Shown piece by piece: positions 20,724 through 31,524 of a DNA stretch of 64,000 nt; positions within the stretch are counted from its first letter, which is position 1, and each line of letters begins with the position of its first letter. Position numbers and translations under genes: made by a program. Below the pieces are notes generated by a model, which had not been told where the DNA came from, did not search any database, and was given only the letters and a program-made list of their open reading frames with translations. The DNA is from a bacterium (GTDB lineage: Bacteria; UBA8248). Location: assembly GCA_965213625.1 (NCBI GenBank), contig CBDBZU010000004.1:1504001-1568000 (forward strand), given 5' to 3'.

Positions 20724-20950
20724 TCATTCCTGCAAATGAGAGTACATGGGCTGTCCGGCAACGGGCATTTGAGCGACCAGCACTTTTCCATGTCCGTCCA
20801 GGATATACATGGTTTTGTTGTCGAGTCCTCCGTAGGCGATATTTGTGAGCTTATCGCTTGAGCAAGTTTCTATTCGATAGATCGGGAGTCCGATTTTGTT
20901 AAACACCCAAACCACGCCCATATTGGTTTGTACGCAAACGACATTGCCAT
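20724..20950 (-). pseudogene. SMP-30/gluconolactonase family C-terminal fragment
   Basis: DGNVVCVQTNMGVVWVFNKIG...TNIAYGGLDNKTMYI; the N-terminal part is missing and replaced by antisense ABC-transporter DNA. Confidence 0.7.
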
Positions 20951-22320
20951 CCGGCGACCTGGCCATGTCGGGAATGACATTCCAGAATCTTCGCGATGGC
21001 TTGCAGGGAGTCGTCGCCAACAGCTTTCTGTCGATTATATTTCTGATTCCGGTTTTTGGCGTCATTTTTTTGTACGACGCCATCCTCGGCGTCATCACCC
21101 TCGTCTTCAGCCTGGCTTCCCTGCTGGTCACCGTAGTCCTCGGGTGGCGCCAGATTTCACCTTATGGGCGGATGCTCAGCGCAGCGCGTCGCGTAGCCGG
21201 CCGACTGTTCCAGATCGTGGGGGGCATCTCCAAGCTGCGAATGGATAATGCGGAAGGGTCGGCTTACGCCATCTGGGCGAGGGGCTATCGTGAGCAGAAG
21301 CGCGCGGAGATAGAACTGGGCGCGCTCGAGGGACATTCGCGCGCATTCGGCGCCGCGCTCCCTTTTCTTGCCGGCGGGGTGCTGCTTTTTTCGGTGGTGG
21401 CGGTCGAAGACCGAAACATTCCGGTCGGCGATTTTCTCGTCGTTTACACGGTCTTTATCGTTTTCCAGTCCGCCATCGCCCGGCTCGGCGAGTCCTTCGG
21501 CGCAATTGCCGCCATGCGTCCGGCGTTCCAGCAGATGCGTCCGCTGCTCTCCGCAGTCCCTGAAACCGTGACGGAAGGAGAGCCGGTTGAATACCTGGGC
21601 GGTGAAATACTGTTCGACCGCATTTCATTCCGCTACGATCCCGACGGTCCGTTGATTCTCGACGACGTCTCGATTCACGCCCGTCCCGGCGAATTCGTCG
21701 CGATTGCCGGTGAGTCCGGCGCAGGGAAGAGCACCCTGTTCCGCCTCGCGCTCGGTATCGACTTGCCGGCCGCCGGCGCGGTGTATTACGACGGCCGCGA
21801 CCTGAAGCACCTGAATCTGAAACAGGTGCGCAAGAAAATTGGCGCTGTGCCGCAATCCGTCGGGCTCCATCCACAGGATCTCTGGGACAATCTGGTCAGT
21901 CACCATGATGCGGTGACGATCGATGAAGTATGGTCGGCGGTCCGTACCGCCGAAGTTGAAGCCCAAATCAAGGACATGCCCATGGGCATGATGACCATGG
22001 TGGGCACCAGCGGGTCTGTCCTGTCGGGCGGCGAGAGCCAGCGCATCACCATCGCCCGCTCGGTGATCGGCAGCCCGCGAATCATGTTGCTGGACGAGGC
22101 GACGAACTGGCTGGATAACGAAAGCCAGGCCAAGATAATGCAAAACCTTGCCGCCCTGACTTCCACCCGCCTCGTCATTGCCCACCGCCTGTCCACGCTG
22201 GAACAGGCCGACCGCATCTACGTGCTGCAAGCCGGGAAAGTCGTACAAAGCGGTTCCTTCAGCGAACTCAAGGAGGTGGACGGGGTATTCAAGGAATTGA
22301 TAAAAAGGCAAATCGCTTGA
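20947..22320 (+). pseudogene. NHLP-system ABC transporter (permease + ATPase), 5'-truncated
   Basis: begins inside the membrane domain at (P)SGDLAMSGMTFQ; Walker A GESGAGKST, LSGGESQR, LLDEAT, IAHRLST. Confidence 0.75.
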
Positions 22321-22395
22321 TCCGAATATGGAGACGATAACTCGGCGGAAAAAATGCATGTTCGGCCAAGGCCCGCGAATATGGAGTAGATATCG

Positions 22396-23697
22396 ATGAA
22401 GAAGCCTTTTGGCCTGGTTGATTCCCTCATATCGCGAGCTGGCGGCGACTACGAATTCCGGGAACGTCTTCTCGCCAAGCCCAAAGAGACCATCGAAGCG
22501 GAATTTGGCGTGTCGATGGCCGAAGACCATGAGATTCACGTACACGAAGAAACCTATACCACGACGCACCTCGTCCTTCCGCCGCGCAGCAAATTCACCG
22601 AGGCCGAACGGGAGGAGGCGAAAACCGGCGCGGAATCGCTCGAGTTTCTTCGCAAAACGATGCACGACCCCGCGCCGCCCCTTCGTCCGCCAAAACTTCA
22701 AGGGGAGAGAACCCCGAAGAACGCCGCGACCACCGGGGCGCTGGCGAAAGCGGGTGGAGAAAGCATCCGCCGCGGTCTTGGTTTCCTGGAATCCACGATA
22801 GACGAGAACGGAGCCTGGCATTGTATCCGGTTCAACTTGGGCGATCCGGATATACCGAGGCATTTCGAAAGACCTCCCTTTATTTCGGCTTTCTGCGCCC
22901 TGGCTCTCGAATGTTGCGAGGAAGCGCGCGCCAGGGCCATATGCGCTGCGACAAGGGCGTATCTCGTCGACACTATCGAATATCCCGGATTGTGGCGCTA
23001 TTATCGCCACCTGCCCCAGGATCTCGACAGCACCGCACTGTGTTCACTCGTGATTGGAGGCCACCTCTGGATTTTACTGGGGAGGAACGTTCCGCAGATA
23101 CTGGCGAATCGCGACGAGGAAGGCCGCTTCATGACCTGGGTTCTCGAAGACGACGAACCCGATGTGGTATCGCGCTTTCGTATCGAAGCCGACCCTGTAG
23201 TCAATGCGAACGTCATTGCCTATCTCGGCGACTGTCCAGAAACCAGGGATGCCCAAAGGTGGCTGGAAGCCTTGATAACCGAAGGCAATCTCGAGGGATC
23301 GTCGAAATGGTATCCCGACGAGGTCGCGATCTGCTATGCGACCGCCCGCGCCATGATTCGCGCACGGCCCGCTCTCGACCGGCTGCGCCCGATACTAGCG
23401 GAGCGCATCCTGGGCTTGCGGGACGAGGAAGGGGAATTCGGCAACATCCTCCAAACGGCTCAGGCCGTCTCGGCGCTCCATCATGTTGGACGCCTCGACG
23501 GCGTCGACGCGAAACGCGAGGTGGAGAGGTTCACGGGTTCGCAGCGTGAGGACGGTAGCTGGCCGGAGCTTCTCGCGTTTGGCGACCAAACGTTGAAGTG
23601 GGGTACGGTAGGGCGGATAGGACATGGCTCAGAATCCGTGACCACGGCGTTTTGTATCGAAGCTCTCGAACGTCTCCTCGCAATCTTGCGGACCTGA
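22396..23697 (+). CDS. NHLP-leader domain fused to a class II terpene cyclase/prenyltransferase-like alpha-barrel
   Basis: residues 1-78 are colinear with the precursor leader; QW-like repeats (FLESTIDENGAW, SQREDGSW, LRDEEGEF); DxDD-like PQDLDSTAL. Confidence 0.75.
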   Translation: MKKPFGLVDSLISRAGGDYEFRERLLAKPKETIEAEFGVSMAEDHEIHVHEETYTTTHLVLPPRSKFTEAEREEAKTGAESLEFLRKTMHDPAPPLRPPKLQGERTPKNAATTGALAKAGGESIRRGLGFLESTIDENGAWHCIRFNLGDPDIPRHFERPPFISAFCALALECCEEARARAICAATRAYLVDTIEYPGLWRYYRHLPQDLDSTALCSLVIGGHLWILLGRNVPQILANRDEEGRFMTWVLEDDEPDVVSRFRIEADPVVNANVIAYLGDCPETRDAQRWLEALITEGNLEGSSKWYPDEVAICYATARAMIRARPALDRLRPILAERILGLRDEEGEFGNILQTAQAVSALHHVGRLDGVDAKREVERFTGSQREDGSWPELLAFGDQTLKWGTVGRIGHGSESVTTAFCIEALERLLAILRT

Positions 23698-23779
23698 AAT
23701 TCCTTGCAGGTTCAGGTATTCGGGGATAAAATATCGTCCGGCCTGAGGGTTCAAATCTGTTTACTGTAAAGGAGCTGAC

Positions 23780-26176
23780 ATGCCACAAAGTCCCGTAGCA
23801 AGTGGTGGCTCCGGTCTAGGCGACGCCGAAGCCGTTCAGCGTATCGAGCCGTCCATTCTGACCGCTCTTCCGCATTATCTGCCATTGGTCGTTTTTCCGC
23901 TGATTCTTCTCGGCGCGTACAATGGAGGCTGGTGGTTGCTGCCGCCGCTCGTTTTTATGAGTGTTGCGGGGTCGCTTGATAAGGTGCTGGGTCGGGACGG
24001 ACAAAACATGGACCCGGCGAATACGTCGGAGCACCGCCTGTTCTGGCACAATCTGCCGGTCTGGTCGTGGTCGTTTCTGTGGCCGCCGACGCTCATTTTC
24101 GGTATGTGGCAAATCCTGGCGGCGGATCAATTCTCCATCTGGGAAGGCGTGCTCCTGGCGATCATCCTGACGATGGAAGCGCAAGCCGTATTCGTAGTCG
24201 GCCACGAAATGATTCACCGGCGCACGACCTGGGAACGCCGGGTGGGCGAATTCCTGCTCGCCACCGTCTCCTATCCGCAATACGCCACGGAGCACGTCTA
24301 TATTCACCATGCCCTGGTCGGCACGCCGTATGACGTCGGGTCCGCTCCGAAGGGGGAAAGTTTCTGGAGATATCTACCCAAGGAAGTTGTCAGCAACCTC
24401 GTCCATTCCTGGGAAGTCGCAAGAGAACGCTTGGCGCGGCGGCGTTTGCCCGTGTGGCATTACGACAATCCGTTCTGGCGCTACGTCGTCGGCGTCGCGT
24501 TCTGGTACGGACTGGTTTACTGGATGGGCGGGATCTGGGCCGTTCCCGTCTTCGTCTTCCTCGGTCTGTCCTGCGTCTTTTCGATGAAGATGAGCAACTA
24601 CTTTCAACACTACGGCCTGCGCCGGGTCCGTCTGGACAACGGTCGCTGGGAAAAGGCGATGCCGCGCCATTCCTGGAGCGCGGACTGGAAGTTCAGCAAC
24701 TGGATGTTTTTCAATATGCAGCGCCATGCGGATCATCATGCGGTGGCGTCGCGCCAGTATCCGCTGCTGCAGGTCAGCGGCCTCGATGAGTCGCCGGAGT
24801 TGCCGGGAACCTACGCCGACATGATGAACATCGTGCTGCGGCCCAAGCGCTGGTTCGAGAAGATGGACCCGCTGGTGGACCAATGGCGCGAACATTTCTA
24901 TCCGGAGGTTGACGACTGGGGCCCCTACGACAGCCCGATTGCCGCGGCGCGGCCCGACGCCTTTGACGCGATACTCGAAATCTTCGGCGCCGCCCCGAGG
25001 CTTGCCAAACGGGTTGAGCGGAACCCGGAACTTCTGGACAACCTGCAAGACCAGGAATTCCTCGACCTCGACCTGCCGAAGGGGTTCGGGCCGGATGATG
25101 AATACGAATCGATTGCGCGGCGCGGGCTTGCGAGAGTCTACTGGACTTACGAAATGGACGTTCAGGAATTGAAGGGTCTGGTCGCCGAACTGCCGGTGGC
25201 CGATGCGAGGGAGACCGCTGAAATCGTGCGAAACTGGTCGAACGACAAGGCGTTTCAGATCGGTATGCACGTGATGCGCGGAAACCTGTTGCCAGCGGAA
25301 GCGAGAACGGCGCTGTCGAATCTCGCCGAAGCATCGGTTGCGACCGTGCTCGCCTCCGTGGTCGCGGATTATGTCGACCGGTTCGGAATGCTGAGTGTGG
25401 GTGGAGTCGCTGCCGTTTTCCTGGGCGATCTGGCCAGCCGGGAAGCTTATCCCGGTGTTGGAATCGATATGCTGCTCGTCCATGACGGTCTGCGGTCCGG
25501 CAAAAACGAACAAGTGTGCCAAAGTTTCCGAGATGCCCTGACCGACCTGGCGCAGGACAGCCTGTTGTTCTCTCCGGTCCCGCCCGGCTCGAATTCCATT
25601 CTTGAGTTGCCGCTTTCCGAACTGGCCGAACATTATGGAGATTCGACTTCAGGCGAAGTGCCCGCCCTCACCAGGGCGCGTTGCGTGTTCGAGTATGGCG
25701 GTTCCGATATCGAAGGTCGCTTCGATGAGGCGCGGCGCCGGGTACTGGCCGAATGCAGGGCGAACGAGTCTTTGCTCGCCCGGTTGAGCGAGCGGACGGA
25801 AGACCCTGCCGAAACAGGCGTGTCCGCATACGCCCGGATGCGCGGCGGGCTGAACGATGTCGAGAAGGTCGCGCGTTACCTGCAGTTGGTGCGCGCCGGA
25901 AGCGACTTCGACGATCCGGCGCCGACCGCCGCGGCGGTGTTCGAAGCCGCAGGCGCCGAGCCGCTGGCGCAAGCCGCGGCCATGTGGCGGGATTTACAGG
26001 GCGTCATGCGCCTTGTCGGCGAGGAAGGGTTCGACGCGACGGCGGCAGGGCCGAAGGTCAAATCTCTTGTTGCGAACGCTTGCGGTCAGGAGGATTTCGA
26101 TGCGCTGGCGTCGGCGGTCGCCGAAACCGCATCCAGCGCCGCCGCCCGCATCGATACGCTCGTTTCGCGTGCATGA
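23780..26176 (+). CDS. AlkB-type membrane di-iron hydroxylase/desaturase fused to a GlnE-like domain
   Basis: GHEMIH, EHVYIHH, NYFQHYGL, QRHADHH; C-terminal LGDLASRE...GIDML, ALTRARCV, RGGLNDVEKVARYLQL; RBS AAGGAG. Confidence 0.8.
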   Translation: MPQSPVASGGSGLGDAEAVQRIEPSILTALPHYLPLVVFPLILLGAYNGGWWLLPPLVFMSVAGSLDKVLGRDGQNMDPANTSEHRLFWHNLPVWSWSFLWPPTLIFGMWQILAADQFSIWEGVLLAIILTMEAQAVFVVGHEMIHRRTTWERRVGEFLLATVSYPQYATEHVYIHHALVGTPYDVGSAPKGESFWRYLPKEVVSNLVHSWEVARERLARRRLPVWHYDNPFWRYVVGVAFWYGLVYWMGGIWAVPVFVFLGLSCVFSMKMSNYFQHYGLRRVRLDNGRWEKAMPRHSWSADWKFSNWMFFNMQRHADHHAVASRQYPLLQVSGLDESPELPGTYADMMNIVLRPKRWFEKMDPLVDQWREHFYPEVDDWGPYDSPIAAARPDAFDAILEIFGAAPRLAKRVERNPELLDNLQDQEFLDLDLPKGFGPDDEYESIARRGLARVYWTYEMDVQELKGLVAELPVADARETAEIVRNWSNDKAFQIGMHVMRGNLLPAEARTALSNLAEASVATVLASVVADYVDRFGMLSVGGVAAVFLGDLASREAYPGVGIDMLLVHDGLRSGKNEQVCQSFRDALTDLAQDSLLFSPVPPGSNSILELPLSELAEHYGDSTSGEVPALTRARCVFEYGGSDIEGRFDEARRRVLAECRANESLLARLSERTEDPAETGVSAYARMRGGLNDVEKVARYLQLVRAGSDFDDPAPTAAAVFEAAGAEPLAQAAAMWRDLQGVMRLVGEEGFDATAAGPKVKSLVANACGQEDFDALASAVAETASSAAARIDTLVSRA

Positions 26177-28527
26177 AGGCGCCGATTGAGCAGACGCGGA
26201 ATTCCCGCAAGACGTCGCAGACGAAAATGAATCCAAGACGCGGGATATTGACGAAAACGACCCCAGCGGACGAAGGCCTCGTCGAGTTCCCCGCGCTTAC
26301 CCCGCACCTGCAGTTCCACGAAATTGACGAGCAGCAGACGCTGCTGGTTTCCGAGTCGTTCGATACCCTGCTGCACGGCGGCCTGTATTGCGACCTGCTA
26401 CCGCTTCTGGGCGACCGGCGCCCGCTTGCCGGGATTGTCGCCGCCCTCGATGGCCGCCATGCCGCCGCTAACGTTCATGCGGCGGTTGTTTCACTCTCCG
26501 ACAGGGGCTACGTCGTCTCCGCCGATCATGGCATGGACCGACCTCGTGCGGCCTATTGGACCTCGCTCGGCGCATCGCCCCGCTGGGTCGAAGGGCGGCT
26601 GGCGGAATCGCGCATCGCGGTCGAAGGTGACGACGGCCGCCTCGTCCGGCATCTGGAAGAGAGCGGCGTCTGTGTGGCGGCCTGCGATCCACGGCTCACC
26701 GTTATCGTCTGCGACGATTATCTCGAAGCACGGTTTGAAGACGTGAATCGGCGCCGCCTCGAGGCGAGAGCGCCGTGGACGCTGGTGCGGCCGCACGGCA
26801 TGGAGGCGCTGTTCGGCCCCGTCTTCCGCGCGGATAGACAAGGACCCTGCTGGGAATGTCTGGTTCACCGCCTGCGCAGTCATAAGGAGGTCCACAATTT
26901 CCTGCGTAGCGTTGCCGGAGAGGAAGCCGCCTTCAAGCCGTTTGCGGCGGAGCCGACGGCGCTCGAAGCCTTGTACGGGCTGATAGCGGCCGAAATCGTC
27001 AAATGGCTGGTGCTGGAAGAGGCGGCCCCGATTCACGAGAGGGCAATAGCGATGAACCTCGGCTCGTTCACAAGTTCGCAGCACGCAGTGACGCGCCGCC
27101 CGCAGTGCCCGGCCTGTGGCGACGAGGCGTTGTACCGGCCGGACCGGCAGCCTGCGCCGCTGCGCCTGAAATCGAGTCCCAAAACCCATCGCAACAGCGG
27201 TGGTGCGCGGGCCGTGACGCCGGAAGCCACCCTGACGAAATACCGCCACTTGGTGAGCCCGATCAGCGGGGTCGTCACCTGGCTGACGCGCACTACCGAC
27301 GAGAGCGATTCCTGGCTGCACGTCTATTGGGCCGGAAGCAATCCCGCCACGAGAAGCCGGAGCCTGAGTTCGCTCAGGCGCAGCCTGCGCAGCAAGAGCG
27401 CCGGCAAGGGCAGCACGCGGGAACAATCCGAGGCCAGCGCCCTATGCGAGGCGCTAGAGCGTTATTCGGGCGCATATTGCGGAGACGAGATACGCATCCG
27501 CAAGCGATTCGTCGACTTCGCCGCAGAAGACGAGGCTATCCATCCCAACGATGCGCAGCTTTTCAGCGAGGGTCAGCTTGACGACGCGGAGAGGATCAAC
27601 GCGAAAGGCCACCCGTACAACATCGTCCCGCCGCGTCTCGAGCCCGATGCCGCAATCGACTGGACGCCCGTGTGGTCGTTCACGCAGCGGCGGCATCGCT
27701 ATCTGCCGACGTCGATGCTCTACAGCATGTCTGCCGAACAGCGCGGAGATGCCGAACTGATTGCCGACTCGAACGGCTGCGCCGCAGGGAACATCCTGGA
27801 GGAGGCCATCCTGCAAGGCTTCTATGAACTGGTCGAGCGCGATGCGTTCGCCATCTGGTGGTATAACGGGCTGAGAGCGCCCGGGGTCGATCTCTCCAGT
27901 TTTGATGATGAATTCCTGGCATCGGCCGCGGATTATTATGGTCGCTACGAGCGGGAAGTGTGGATGCTCGACGTTACTTCCGACATTGGTATCCCTTCGT
28001 TCGTTGCGCTCTCGCGCAGACCGGACGCGGAAACCGAGGACATCATATACGGCGCAGGCGCTCATGCCGACCCGCGACTGGCGGCCCTGCGCGCGATTTG
28101 CGAGTTGAACCAATGTCTTACCTGGCTGCCGCGTCCCGGAAGGGGCGACGGCCGGCCGATGATCGACGATCCCTTGGCGCTCACGTGGTGGAAGACAGCT
28201 CGAATCGCCGATTGTTCCTGGCTGGCGTCGGCGCCGGACGCGCCGCTCAAGCAAGGCTCACAGTATCCGGTGATCGAATCCGCGGACACGCTTGAGGATG
28301 TGGAACATTGCCGATCGTTGGTGGAAGCCAGGGGCATGGAGTTCCTCGTGCTGGACCAGACCCGGCCGGACATCGGTATGCCGGTTGCGCGGGTCATCGT
28401 ACCGGGCATGCGTCATTTTTGGCCAAGATTCGCGCCCGGGCGCCTGTACGACGTTCCTGTCGGCATGGGCCGCCTGAAGCGCTCCCTGGCCGAAGCCGAT
28501 TTGAATCCCGCACCCGTGATCGCGTAA
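26173..28527 (+). CDS. TOMM leader-binding (E1-like) + YcaO cyclodehydratase fusion
   Basis: GPVF...GPCWECL, CPAC, SAGKG, EALERYS, SNGCAAG, ELVERD, Pro-rich C-terminus NPAPVIA; ATG at 26173 overlaps the upstream TGA (the ORF-track extension to 25753 is unlikely). Confidence 0.92.
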   Translation: MKAPIEQTRNSRKTSQTKMNPRRGILTKTTPADEGLVEFPALTPHLQFHEIDEQQTLLVSESFDTLLHGGLYCDLLPLLGDRRPLAGIVAALDGRHAAANVHAAVVSLSDRGYVVSADHGMDRPRAAYWTSLGASPRWVEGRLAESRIAVEGDDGRLVRHLEESGVCVAACDPRLTVIVCDDYLEARFEDVNRRRLEARAPWTLVRPHGMEALFGPVFRADRQGPCWECLVHRLRSHKEVHNFLRSVAGEEAAFKPFAAEPTALEALYGLIAAEIVKWLVLEEAAPIHERAIAMNLGSFTSSQHAVTRRPQCPACGDEALYRPDRQPAPLRLKSSPKTHRNSGGARAVTPEATLTKYRHLVSPISGVVTWLTRTTDESDSWLHVYWAGSNPATRSRSLSSLRRSLRSKSAGKGSTREQSEASALCEALERYSGAYCGDEIRIRKRFVDFAAEDEAIHPNDAQLFSEGQLDDAERINAKGHPYNIVPPRLEPDAAIDWTPVWSFTQRRHRYLPTSMLYSMSAEQRGDAELIADSNGCAAGNILEEAILQGFYELVERDAFAIWWYNGLRAPGVDLSSFDDEFLASAADYYGRYEREVWMLDVTSDIGIPSFVALSRRPDAETEDIIYGAGAHADPRLAALRAICELNQCLTWLPRPGRGDGRPMIDDPLALTWWKTARIADCSWLASAPDAPLKQGSQYPVIESADTLEDVEHCRSLVEARGMEFLVLDQTRPDIGMPVARVIVPGMRHFWPRFAPGRLYDVPVGMGRLKRSLAEADLNPAPVIA

Positions 28528-28536
28528 GGAGGCAAT

Positions 28537-29655
28537 ATGGATATCGACGAAGCAGTCGCGCTTACCCAGGACCGCCTCGTCCAAGAAGGCGGCACCATGG
28601 CTGAATTGCTCGGGCAATTTCGAAGCAGAATTTCTCCGACTCTTATCGGAGAGCGGGAGTGGGGGCGCATACTGGAACGTGCGAGCCGACTTCCCATTAC
28701 CATGGGCGCCCAGCCGTTCGGCTTCGAACTGCCTCTGCATGACAGTCGGCCGGCGGCGGATTTCGGCGTCTCGCTGGCGAGCGGAAACCGGTCAGGCGAT
28801 TTTTTCGAGGAGCGGGCGCGGACCGACGAGGCGGATAAAACTGCGAGAGCGGTCAGGCGGCTGTTCAGGGAAATGGAAGCCCAGGACTCGCCTCTGCGAG
28901 AGATTGTGGGACGTAAATTGATGCTGGAATATGACATAGATTCGGCGCCGGGAAGTAAAGATTCGCTGCCGGGAATGTTCCTGCGGCCCAACGAACGCAC
29001 GTTATCCGGTGGCGACGGCCTCCAGACCGATGTCGGAGTCGTGGTTGACGCCCTCGTTTCCTGCGTCGGCTGGGAAAAGATAGCCGCTGAACGGAAAAAC
29101 GCCGAACGGGTTTACCTGGCGCAGCCGGAAGACACGCGCCTGGATTCTTTCGGGATATTCCCCTCTCGCGAACGCACAATCCGCCTGGCGATCATGGGCT
29201 TCAAATCACAGGGGGATATTTGTTCCTATCTCGAGAACATTGGCTGGCCGGGTCGGCTCTCGGCCGTAGACGCTTTGATTTCACGCTTCAAGGAACGCGC
29301 GGATATTGTGAGAACCGGAGCGAATGTTGACGTGCAGGCGGACGGTGTCGGTCCGACGCTCGGCCTGACGCTCATCGTCAAGCAGAGATATACGAAAGAT
29401 TCACGTTACTGGCTCGACGGCCTGACCGATTGGGACCCCTTTCTCGACGCCCTGAGCCATGAGGACTTTGTCGTTCCGGAAAAGATTGAGGCGCTTGCCG
29501 ATTGGGTTTCGAAACCGACGACTCTGTTCGCCAGGACCGGGCAGTTTCTCATGTTGCGCGGCATTCACCACATAAAACTGGTCATTTCCGGAAATCGGCT
29601 CAGGCAAGCCAAGGCCTATGTTTACATGGTGCTTTCCGGGGCCCTCTCCATTTGA
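28537..29655 (+). CDS. hypothetical RiPP maturase, putative ABBA-fold aromatic prenyltransferase
   Basis: AAGGAGG RBS; FGFEL..ADF, LMLEYD and HHIKL...AKAY resemble aromatic prenyltransferase strands; the function is inferred. Confidence 0.5.
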   Translation: MDIDEAVALTQDRLVQEGGTMAELLGQFRSRISPTLIGEREWGRILERASRLPITMGAQPFGFELPLHDSRPAADFGVSLASGNRSGDFFEERARTDEADKTARAVRRLFREMEAQDSPLREIVGRKLMLEYDIDSAPGSKDSLPGMFLRPNERTLSGGDGLQTDVGVVVDALVSCVGWEKIAAERKNAERVYLAQPEDTRLDSFGIFPSRERTIRLAIMGFKSQGDICSYLENIGWPGRLSAVDALISRFKERADIVRTGANVDVQADGVGPTLGLTLIVKQRYTKDSRYWLDGLTDWDPFLDALSHEDFVVPEKIEALADWVSKPTTLFARTGQFLMLRGIHHIKLVISGNRLRQAKAYVYMVLSGALSI

Positions 29656-29674
29656 GAGCCGCTTTCGCAAGGCG

Positions 29675-29717
29675 AAGTAAAAATCCCCCCGCCGATGACG
29701 AGCGGGGGGTTTTACTT
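29675..29717. terminator. probable bidirectional intrinsic terminator
   Basis: AAGTAAAAATCCCCCCGC-loop-GCGGGGGGTTTTACTT between convergent genes. Confidence 0.8.
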
Positions 29718-29767
29718 GATAAGTCTTGCGGATGCGAGGCATCCGCGCGCCGGCAGGTGTTTCTGGT

Positions 29768-30019
29768 CTACCAGCAGCAGGAGAGGCCTGCCGAAACAGC
29801 TTCGAGTTGCTCCTCGGTGATGTGCGGGTCCGGGGGCAACGCAATATGCACTGTCTGCATGTCGCTCTCATGAATCTTGATATTCATTGATTCGGGCATC
29901 GTGATGCCCAATTCCTCACAGATGGTCGACTTCGGGTCTGCGAGTAGCTGTTGCCTGAAATCCGCGTCCAGGGCGGACTTATCGACAATCTGCTTCAACA
30001 TTTCATCGCCGCTTCTCAT
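29768..30019 (-). CDS. NHLP-leader (proteusin) RiPP precursor, 83 aa, core LSCCW
   Basis: DADFRQQLLADPK...HIALPP...ITEEQLEAVSAG then LSCCW*; ATG at 30019 preceded by AAGGGG. Confidence 0.92.
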   Translation of the reverse strand: MRSGDEMLKQIVDKSALDADFRQQLLADPKSTICEELGITMPESMNIKIHESDMQTVHIALPPDPHITEEQLEAVSAGLSCCW

Positions 30020-30075
30020 GATACACCCCTTTGTATGGTTAGATGAACAATACAACCCATTCCTCAATAATATGG

Positions 30076-30112: not shown

Positions 30113-31524
30113 GGTCAAGTCCTGTAGATGCTGGATAATTTCTTTGGGCGCATATCGGCTGAGGGCTGCCTGATGTCGTTTTCCGCCTCGTAGTTCTGGT
30201 CCAGTTCCCTTCTGAGGGCGTCCATCTGGCGGCGCTCGAAGCCGGTGACCTTGAGCGCCCGCCATCGCTCGGAAGCCCGGATCATGGCGGCGAACATGAG
30301 CTTGAGCACCGGCTTCTCTCCGAAGGCGTTGGGGATGATTTTCATGCGCCGGCGCTCCTCGACGAACAAGCGTTCGAGCAGGTTCGTCGTGCGCACGGCC
30401 CGGCGGTGGTTGACGGGCGCTCGCAAGTGCGCGATGCAGGCTTCGAAGTCATCGCGGAAGCACGCCACGGCGCCGGGCAATTCGGACTCGTAGTCCCTGG
30501 CGAGCCCCTCGGCCAGTTCCCGGGCGATGGCGCGGGAGGGAGCCTGGTAGGCCGCCGTGGCCCGCGCCTTGAACTCCGGCCAGATGTCCTCGGGCGCCTT
30601 GGCCGCGAGGTTCCTCATCCGGTGCGCCAGGCAGCGTTGTCGCTCCGAGCGCGGGAAGCAGGTCTCGATCGCCTTGATGATGCCGGGCGCCCCGTCGCTG
30701 ACCACAACCAGCGGGTCGCCCAGGCCGCGGGCGCGCATGTCGTGGAAGAACGCGCTCACCGTCTCGGCGTCCTCCTTCGAACCCGCCATCAGATGCAGCA
30801 GGACCTTGGCGCCGTTCGCCGTGAATCCCCAGGCCGCCAATACCGGTTCGCGCTTGCTCCCCGGGCGGATACGTTCCGCAATCCCGTCGATGAACAGATA
30901 GACGACCTCGTATTCGCCCAGGTCCCGCGACGCGAACTCCTGGTAGTCCGCCCACAACCGCTCGCCGAGCTCCGAGACCGCCGTGCGCGAGAGCAGAAGA
31001 CGACCGCTCTCGTCGGTGAAGACGTCCTCGATGTCGCGCACCGACAGGCCGCGCGCCAATAGCTCCACCGCCAGCCCCTCGAGGGTCTCCGTGCGCCCCT
31101 TGAGGCCCTCCCGGATCTCCGAGCGGAACCCCTCCTCGCGCCCGGCAATCTGCGGCGCCGCGTACTCGACGAACCCTTCCGCCGTCTTCAGGCGACCCAG
31201 GCGGCGGCCGTTGCGATAGCCTTGGCCGGGCTTCGCGCCGTGTTCGTAGTACTCCCGGCCCAGAGCGTCTCGGCTCTCCGCCTCCAGCGCTTCTTCCACG
31301 ATGAGCCGCGTGGCGAGCTTCACCAGGTCGGCTCGCGCATCGGGACTCGACAGACGGCCTTCGATCAAGTCGGACAGGGATTGGCGAGTATGCATCGATG
31401 CCTGTATTCTCTTCTTCATGGGGTTGCCTCCTCGGTTGGATGCCGGCGCTTACCGGCACGGTTTTGTGATGCCTCCGCCGAGGATGCACCCCTCTAATTT
31501 TTCCAGCAAGTTTAGGACTTCACC
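30113..31524 (-). mobile_element. intact IS256-family insertion sequence
   Basis: imperfect TIRs GGTCAAGTCCTGTAGATGCTGGA / GGTGAAGTCCTAAACTTGCTGGA; 8-bp target duplication ATTTTTTT at 30105-30112 and 31525-31532. Confidence 0.93.
30115..31419 (-). CDS. IS256 family transposase
   Basis: GYRNG, GLSVRDIE, YLFIDG, VVSDG, QRCLAH, RTTNLLER. Confidence 0.95.
   Translation of the reverse strand: MKKRIQASMHTRQSLSDLIEGRLSSPDARADLVKLATRLIVEEALEAESRDALGREYYEHGAKPGQGYRNGRRLGRLKTAEGFVEYAAPQIAGREEGFRSEIREGLKGRTETLEGLAVELLARGLSVRDIEDVFTDESGRLLLSRTAVSELGERLWADYQEFASRDLGEYEVVYLFIDGIAERIRPGSKREPVLAAWGFTANGAKVLLHLMAGSKEDAETVSAFFHDMRARGLGDPLVVVSDGAPGIIKAIETCFPRSERQRCLAHRMRNLAAKAPEDIWPEFKARATAAYQAPSRAIARELAEGLARDYESELPGAVACFRDDFEACIAHLRAPVNHRRAVRTTNLLERLFVEERRRMKIIPNAFGEKPVLKLMFAAMIRASERWRALKVTGFERRQMDALRRELDQNYEAENDIRQPSADMRPKKLSSIYRT

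Follow-up and report, generated by a model that had tools for sequence, protein, structure and literature searches.

An AlkB-type oxygenase fused to a degenerate GlnE half as a candidate oxidative tailoring enzyme of srp proteusin clusters

Introduction

What might a membrane di-iron oxygenase of the AlkB type be doing in a biosynthetic cluster for a peptide that is made by the ribosome and modified after translation (RiPP), and why should it be joined in one polypeptide to a domain resembling half of GlnE? The question is raised by a gene at 23780..26176 (forward strand; an open reading frame (ORF) of 798 aa) in a 64,000-nucleotide stretch of a bacterial genome of the lineage UBA8248 (assembly GCA_965213625.1, contig CBDBZU010000004.1, positions 1,504,001 to 1,568,000), which is referred to here as the window. 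A previous reading of the window, made without database searches (the sequence-only reading), had proposed an enzyme acting on a lipidated peptide with a dead nucleotidyltransferase (NTase) fold attached. Our own answer, to which we give about an even chance of being right in its entirety, is that the fusion is an O2-dependent, membrane-bound di-iron enzyme that carries out oxidative tailoring in the srp proteusin pathway, working by the mechanism set out in the Discussion.

The srp (sponge-derived RiPP proteusin) clusters were reportedly defined by Nguyen et al. in JACS in 2021. Our literature search, in which that defining paper and its supplement were not included, found no text giving a role for the AlkB-GlnE gene or naming SrpB or SrpD in this context. 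The search also found no paper on an AlkB-GlnE fusion or on YcaO with a sponge alkane hydroxylase; among the papers listed, nothing relevant concerned a proteusin prenyltransferase, terpene cyclase or alkane, and YcaO was absent from the AlkB papers. According to the available portions of two papers citing the srp work, only SrpE, SrpC (YcaO) and SrpI (the brominase) have been characterised; the SrpE core is LCCCW, thiazolines are made in it by the YcaO protein SrpC, and the terminal Trp is brominated by SrpI (PMC10858898, PMC10286304). A further paper describes such clusters as holding 'several genes of unknown function' (PMC11832590), and in a preprint high transcription across phyla is reported for a precursor gene of 252 bp that bears the ITEEQL motif.

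Results

The AlkB-type domain of the fusion lies at 23870..24889 on the forward strand (aa 31-370), and the gene has an AAGGAG ribosome-binding site 5 nt ahead of its ATG. It is clear that the four His boxes reported in the sequence-only reading are all intact (HEMIH at 142-146, EHVYIHH at 171-177, NYFQHYG at 273-279 and QRHADHH at 314-320), and their nine histidines are invariant among 47 full-length fusions spanning 29-90% identity. Pfam places FA_desaturase at residues 121-329 (E 7.3e-27). In phmmer searches against the PDB, residues 51-368 align with positions 50-364 of the AlkB structure 8f6t (E 4.1e-47), and the second solved AlkB, 8sbb, matches with an E value of 5.6e-36. A crude hydropathy scan found three long hydrophobic stretches (26-54, 112-145 and 243-273), each of a size for a hairpin, the expectation for an AlkB being six transmembrane helices. 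As judged from these residues and alignments, the AlkB active-site scaffold is intact in the fusion. The closest stand-alone relatives of this part are named alkane 1-monooxygenase and come mostly from Rhodobacterales, with 36-42% identity.

Relatives of the whole fusion are numerous. A word-based search returned 921, and the 120 listed among them are all 784-815 aa long with 73-90% identity; this constancy of length in 120 of 120 clusters, together with dN/dS (the ratio of non-synonymous to synonymous substitution rates) below 1, rules out a pseudogene or an artefact of gene calling. A scan of one genome per species gave 168 loci, 80 of which were kept, with fusions 57-93% identical. The hosts of these 80 loci are metagenome-assembled genomes of Nitrospinota, Terriglobia, Bryobacterales, Vicinamibacterales, several alpha- and gammaproteobacterial groups, Binatia and Thermodesulfobacteriota. 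When the window's genes were used as tblastn queries, the fusion was found in all 80 loci, YcaO in 79, a 372-aa protein in 70, a 433-aa NHLP-fusion protein in 68 and the ABC exporter in 61, while the genes flanking the cassette in the window were found in 0-1 of the 80.

In the window the gene for an E1-like/YcaO cyclodehydratase of the SrpC type occupies 26173..28527 on the forward strand (784 aa from the ATG at 26173; YcaO PF02624 with E 2.1e-90, a winged helix-turn-helix, TIGR03604 and TIGR03882), and the overlap that had been claimed for the pair can be read at 26173-26176, where the fusion's stop codon lies over the YcaO start in an ATGA overlap. Among the 80 loci the YcaO start is -4 to +133 nt from the fusion stop in all 79 that have downstream sequence, with the 4-nt overlap in 24; in the sole locus lacking YcaO, L062, the sequence stops 138 nt past the fusion gene. 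The window's SrpE-type NHLP precursor is encoded at 29768..30019 on the reverse strand; it has 83 aa and ends ...HITEEQLEAVSAGLSCCW, with the core LSCCW. Of the 80 loci, 59 hold precursors of this type, 60 in all, and the ending LCCCW is shared by 57 of the 60. A Trp halogenase of the SrpI type is present within 8 kb in 31 of the 80. Its gene content identifies the operon as the srp proteusin cluster that has already been published, and not as a new system. The placement of the fusion inside a RiPP operon thus stands, since it adjoins YcaO in 79 of 80 loci, but novelty of the system does not.

These data bear on one account of the protein, that it is an ordinary alkane or lipid hydroxylase, acting on hydrocarbons or host membrane lipids or serving self-protection, which merely travels with the cassette. 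Its identity to stand-alone alkane 1-monooxygenases would fit such an enzyme, as would the entry of AlkB substrates from the membrane, which is established for 8f6t. Strict co-inheritance with YcaO across phyla, while the flanks are not conserved, speaks against it, as does the lack of rubredoxin or alk genes nearby, and we regard this account as very unlikely. The converse of the proposed placement, a fusion occurring mostly outside RiPP loci, was not what was observed; the AlkB fusion was seen only in loci of RiPP type.

The rest of the protein (24890..26173, forward strand; aa 371-798) is assigned, from an AlphaFold2 model with Foldseek and VIA comparisons, as a pseudo-nucleotidyltransferase domain like one GlnE half. 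Pfam GlnE (PF03710) is found at residues 397-637 with E 5.5e-6 and 26.4 bits, the curated cut-off being 24; the NCBIfam model PRK14108, which represents an alphaproteobacterial-type GlnE, aligns residues 627-796 with model positions 804-983 of 986 at E 4.1e-24, far below its equivalog cut-off; and residues 462-704 weakly match the adenylylation (AT) domain of E. coli GlnE, 3k7d (phmmer against the PDB, E 0.003). The model of residues 370-798, built on an alignment of 37 family members, has a mean pLDDT of 88.9 and a pTM of 0.91. Its top two Foldseek matches are the solved GlnE halves 1v4a (E 4.4e-9, TM 0.66/0.66) and 3k7d (E 5.3e-9), followed by the GlnE-like AMPylase DrrA. In VIA, 378 residues superpose on 1v4a with Z 30.0 and an rmsd of 3.6, 368 residues on 3k7d_B 513-946 with Z 27.0, and DrrA (6yx5) gives Z 18.4. 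Structural likeness of the C-terminus to GlnE, which the sequence-only reading had named as a test of its proposal, was therefore found; the likeness extends over about 430 aa (370-798), which is one GlnE half in full, rather than over the ~320 aa first supposed.

The part of the fold that should carry catalysis is degenerate. The NTase motif, GDLASREAYPGVGID, lies at 25424..25468 on the forward strand (aa 549-563) and reads GDLAS at 549-553 and VGID at 560-563, so that Gly replaces the first catalytic Asp, as had been noticed earlier, and A-S replaces the G[GS] phosphate-binding turn. The corresponding motif is GKLGS...SSDLDL in the genuine GlnE P0164 and GKLGGLELNFSSDID in the host genome's own GlnE. 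The tandem of adenylyl-removing (AR) and AT halves that makes up GlnE, about 950-1000 aa, is absent from the fusion, which carries one half; the genuine GlnE relatives P0164 and P0192 carry two GlnE stretches. A canonical, separate GlnE is encoded elsewhere in the same genome, and no blastp match between it and the fused domain was found at E <= 1e-3. Recent descent of the domain from the host's GlnE was rejected because of this.

Degeneracy is a property of the family and not of the window alone. Members of the main clade have Gly or Ala in place of the first Asp of DxD, while any of D, E, N, K, R, S and H is found at the second position. Both carboxylates are kept only in small divergent groups (SDLE in L009-L011, with SVLE in L012, ELD/EID in L031/L071 and DVE in P0146), and among remote fusions the motif is degenerate in most. 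In an alignment of 64 family members, invariant columns make up 47% of the AlkB part, 38% of the linker 331-396, 14% of the GlnE-like stretch 397-637 and 1.2% of the tail; in 47 fusions reaching down to 29% identity, all invariant C-terminal columns lie in the helical subdomain 392-500 and the NTase core has 0. Median dN/dS, taken from the 429 of 465 pairs with 0.05 < dS < 1 among 31 sequences of exactly 798 aa that were assumed collinear without re-alignment, is 0.12 for AlkB, 0.14 for the helical part 371-520, 0.33 for the NTase core 521-640 and 0.37 for the tail 641-798.

Free variation of the catalytic carboxylates, combined with a dN/dS below 1, marks the GlnE part as a retained, non-catalytic domain under purifying selection, in agreement with the catalytically dead fold that the sequence-only reading had proposed. 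That the domain is instead still an active nucleotidyltransferase, AMPylating the peptide or a partner, is extremely unlikely. The GlnE/DrrA-like fold is whole and two carboxylates survive in some divergent members, which would suit such an activity; the window's clade, however, has Gly or Ala for the first Asp, an unconserved second position and no G[GS] turn, and not one NTase-core column is invariant. The dS values below 1 between hosts of different phyla indicate in addition that the gene has spread horizontally in recent times.

An exhaustive search with residues 370-798 returned 551 representatives at E <= 1e-3. A Pfam scan of 24 of the 551 gave 12 AlkB fusions or fragments, 6 two-half GlnE proteins, 2 with the GlnE domain alone and 4 AcrB-type RND transporters. 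Matches in genuine GlnE proteins lie in the C-terminal half, the best being to a 1013-aa GlnE (E 2.9e-46, 33% identity). The RND proteins (P0182, P0196, P0166 and P0176) carry a C-terminal, mostly degenerate GlnE-like domain with 28-35% identity to that of the window. A metagenome scan with the RND-type domains gave one RND gene, L089:6701-11275, encoding 1524 aa, which has a HlyD-type adaptor gene ahead of it and whose surroundings include a permease, an outer-membrane protein and hydrolases; no RiPP genes were found within 10 kb in this one locus. Since the dead domain occurs on both AlkB and RND proteins, it is a module common to unrelated membrane proteins.

One reading of such a module, raised already in the sequence-only reading, is that it senses a ligand or protein (a nucleotide, glutamine or a PII-type signal) and gates the membrane protein to which it is attached. 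Its descent from the regulated AT half of GlnE, its addition to two unrelated membrane proteins, AlkB and the RND pumps, and the purifying selection on it all suit a sensor. Conservation, however, peaks in the helical part abutting AlkB and not in the nucleotide pocket, and no PII or nitrogen gene is linked to the cassette. Nothing found supports the link to nitrogen signalling that had been raised earlier. We consider a sensor distinctly unlikely.

The other 11 loci of the metagenome scan hold AlkB-GlnE fusions of 42-52% identity. In 5 of these 11 divergent loci YcaO, the 372-aa protein, ABC genes and NHLP precursors are seen in another gene order, the remaining loci being too short. L094, L095, L096 and L099 make up a divergent srp-like family, with fusions 49-52% identical and the cores LCCCG, LSCCL and LCCCL.

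Two neighbours of the fusion were characterised for what they may imply about its substrate. The first, of 372 aa (28537..29655, forward strand), belongs to no family in Pfam or NCBIfam and gave 0 matches when its profile was compared with PDB sequences. Its AlphaFold2 model (pLDDT 91.6) matches 62 PDB chains at E <= 1e-3, with modest TM values of 0.38-0.56, and the matches listed are all ABBA prenyltransferases: EpzP, NphB/Orf2, AmbP1, DMATS1 and PatF. An Atlas lead for the same protein is Trp_DMAT (0.91). The modelled fold, that of an ABBA aromatic prenyltransferase, is a hint that srp clusters include a prenylation step not yet described.

The second, of 433 aa (22396..23697, forward strand), has an NHLP-leader-like domain (about 1-95; leader_NHLP TIGR03793 at 9-70, E 1.4e-11) followed by an alpha/alpha toroid like those of terpene cyclases and prenyltransferases. 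Pfam gives SQHop_cyclase_C at E 6e-4 and Atlas places it in SQHop_cyclase_C clusters (0.96); the family profile matches drimenol synthase, 9mhs_B, in its class II cyclase domain (E 9.8e-6) and also squalene-hopene cyclase (SHC; 2e-3). The long form is present in 63 of 80 loci. D209-L-D211-S-T-A is invariant, a sequence which we take to resemble the class II DxD[D/T]T motif. The protein looks like a leader-tagged enzyme and not a precursor. Together the ABBA fold at 28537..29655 and the toroid at 22396..23697 lend circumstantial support to the idea of an enzyme acting on a lipidated peptide.

The lipid context further includes genes downstream of the cassette in 14-16 loci, which encode LolA-like (PF17131, E 1.5e-57) and weakly DUF1302-like proteins (for example L064:14283-15233 and L060:15336-16568). 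Genes of the LolA and DUF1302 types are usually tied to the envelope handling of hydrophobic or lipidated molecules.

Known AlkB enzymes work with a redox partner, rubredoxin or ferredoxin, and the survey made here covered rubredoxin. PF00301 gave 0 matches in the window's genome, which is 96.6% complete, and was absent from 4 of the 5 other chromosome-level host genomes (G001-G005), that is from 5 of 6 overall. A gene for a nitroreductase or SagB-type dehydrogenase was not among the gene clusters common to at least 9 loci.

The genome, of 4.15 Mb, contains the fusion in two copies. The second locus (G000:C4:3525804-3540954, with its counterpart at 20947..30045 of the window) is 99.97% identical to the window across the 8704 nt of 20947-29650. 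It is complete, with a halogenase, a HlyD-like gene, a C39-ABC, a 980-aa ABC, the 433-aa gene, the fusion, YcaO, the 372-aa gene and an LCCCW precursor; the halogenase is a 429-aa ORF, 78% identical to a Trp_halogenase representative. A search of the window found no halogenase in its own copy. The second ABC exporter, full length at 980 aa in the second copy, is present in the window as a remnant at 20896..22320 on the forward strand, a 474-aa ORF that is homologous from about residue 18 and covers only positions 231-686 of NHLM_micro_ABC2; the duplicated block begins at 20947. Both copies abut transposase genes, a Mutator-family transposase in the window (30115..31419, reverse strand; PF00872, E 2.7e-59) and a DDE transposase at the second copy. 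The window's cassette is, from this arrangement, evidently a truncated duplicate. The two precursors are only 88% identical, LSCCW in the window and LCCCW in the second copy, and this difference inside near-identical copies suggests gene conversion between older copies.

Discussion

How could the fusion act in the srp pathway? In the mechanism that we favour, the AlkB domain would hydroxylate a terminal or allylic methyl of a hydrophobic moiety carried on the YcaO-processed SrpE core (L-C/S-C-C-W). This moiety would most likely be a prenyl or terpenoid group from the ABBA prenyltransferase-like neighbour, perhaps cyclised by the NHLP-tagged cyclase-like protein; alternatively, the invariant Leu side chain of the core may be the group oxidised. 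Oxidation would take place at the membrane, beside the ABC exporter. The pseudo-GlnE domain would sit on the cytoplasmic face, in the position that rubredoxin has in FtAlkB-AlkG, as a non-catalytic adaptor or regulatory module; it would not act as an AMP-transferase, and its conserved part is the helical subdomain adjoining AlkB. A complex prediction for the fusion with an SrpE-type precursor scored 0.00 in a run without controls and bears on binding in neither direction.

Several observations weigh against this mechanism. The chemistry itself is inferred from the enzyme family and the neighbouring genes. The conserved cassette encodes no electron donor, and rubredoxin is missing from most of the host genomes surveyed. 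A narrower profile of the 433-aa family loses the match to drimenol synthase and keeps a QW-like repeat match to SHC at E 0.004; since only this repeat is kept, the terpene-cyclase assignment stays a lead. The divergent cores end in G or L, without the terminal Trp that SrpI brominates, and an indole can therefore not serve as prenyl acceptor in every case. The dead domain is also carried by RND pumps in a non-RiPP operon, which argues against a RiPP-specific role for the domain. Finally, a clade of five loci (L026 and L028-L031) has the fusion and YcaO without prenyltransferase-like or cyclase-like genes within 8 kb; ABC and NHLP precursor genes are missing from the same range, and the neighbours at L030:7395-18344 are a cupin, an amidohydrolase, a 554-aa anthrone-oxygenase-like protein, an MMPL transporter and a radical SAM gene. 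It follows from this clade that the enzyme is tied more to YcaO than to prenylation.

That last point leads to the main rival, in which the AlkB domain would be a desaturase-type oxidase that converts the YcaO thiazolines to thiazoles, replacing the azoline dehydrogenase dependent on flavin mononucleotide (FMN), perhaps with electrons derived from the substrate so that rubredoxin would be unneeded. The constant position next to YcaO in the 79 loci, with overlapping genes in 24, and the persistence of the pair in loci lacking the prenyltransferase-like and cyclase-like genes are what would be expected of such an oxidase; the lack of a common nitroreductase or SagB-type gene and of rubredoxin in 5 of 6 genomes would be explained by it, and AlkB falls in the FA_desaturase superfamily. 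The motifs, however, are of the AlkB/XylM type (NYxxHYG), the nearest relatives are alkane 1-monooxygenases, and YcaO is not the adjacent gene in the divergent family. We know of no AlkB-type enzyme that oxidises a heterocycle. On balance we judge an azoline oxidase unlikely, if worth serious consideration.

Returning to hydroxylation of a hydrophobic group, it is tempting to carry the argument through to the product, in a more speculative form that we consider doubtful as a whole. The srp product would then be a terpenoid-peptide hybrid, in which the ABBA protein prenylates the thiazoline pentapeptide, the NHLP-tagged class II cyclase-like protein cyclises the chain, and AlkB-GlnE oxidises it at the membrane before export, with the dead GlnE half serving as a portable cytoplasmic adaptor that in evolution was joined to machines as unrelated as AlkB and the RND pumps. 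Within the same scheme the enzyme could alternatively be an azoline oxidase that works without an external reductant.

The srp clusters are, so far as the sources available to us describe them, among the most widely shared biosynthetic loci of sponge microbiomes, yet functions have been given to only three of their genes; the available part of one preprint also ranks them among the most highly transcribed biosynthetic loci there. An intact AlkB-type core gene with a dead GlnE half, in the company of prenyltransferase-fold and cyclase-like proteins and with its usual redox partner missing from most host genomes surveyed, predicts oxygenated and possibly lipidated products. If an AlkB-family enzyme does take part in RiPP tailoring, the field would gain an enzyme class that is new to it, and a pseudo-GlnE found repeatedly on membrane proteins would represent an accessory module of a new kind. 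What is new here is the analysis of selection by protein region, the survey for rubredoxin, the truncated duplicate with its variant core, the YcaO-only context and the dead domain on RND pumps.

In comparison with known srp clusters, the cassette and its relatives share the 83-aa NHLP precursor with ITEEQL, a core of LCCCW type, the E1-YcaO protein, two ABC exporters and a spread over several phyla, and the genome's complete copy has the Trp halogenase. The window's copy differs in having no halogenase, no C39-ABC and only half of ABC2, and its core, LSCCW, is one residue off LCCCW.

Among AlkB enzymes (Fontimonas thermophila AlkB-AlkG, 8f6t, and 8sbb), the four His motifs are shared, and the second domain follows the AlkB core directly on its C-terminal side, as in 8f6t. 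That second domain is a dead GlnE half and not rubredoxin, no redox partner is nearby, and the setting is a RiPP cluster and not an alk operon. The fusion would therefore be classed as an AlkB by its sequence but not by its redox partner.

Beside the GlnE halves (1v4a, 3k7d) and the DrrA AMPylase domain (6yx5), the C-terminal part has the whole fold of one GlnE half and is nearest in sequence to the C-terminal AT half. Only one half is present, however, the G-x-L-G-[GS]...S-D-x-D motif has been lost and its positions are not conserved, and the domain is fused to a membrane enzyme; on these features the fusion protein is evidently not a GlnE. The remaining comparison is with RND transporters of the AcrB type, in which the carrier is an efflux pump; in L089, the single locus available, its gene follows one for a HlyD-type adaptor and RiPP genes are absent within 10 kb. 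There too a membrane protein has a homologous, mostly degenerate GlnE half at its C-terminus, on the cytoplasmic side.

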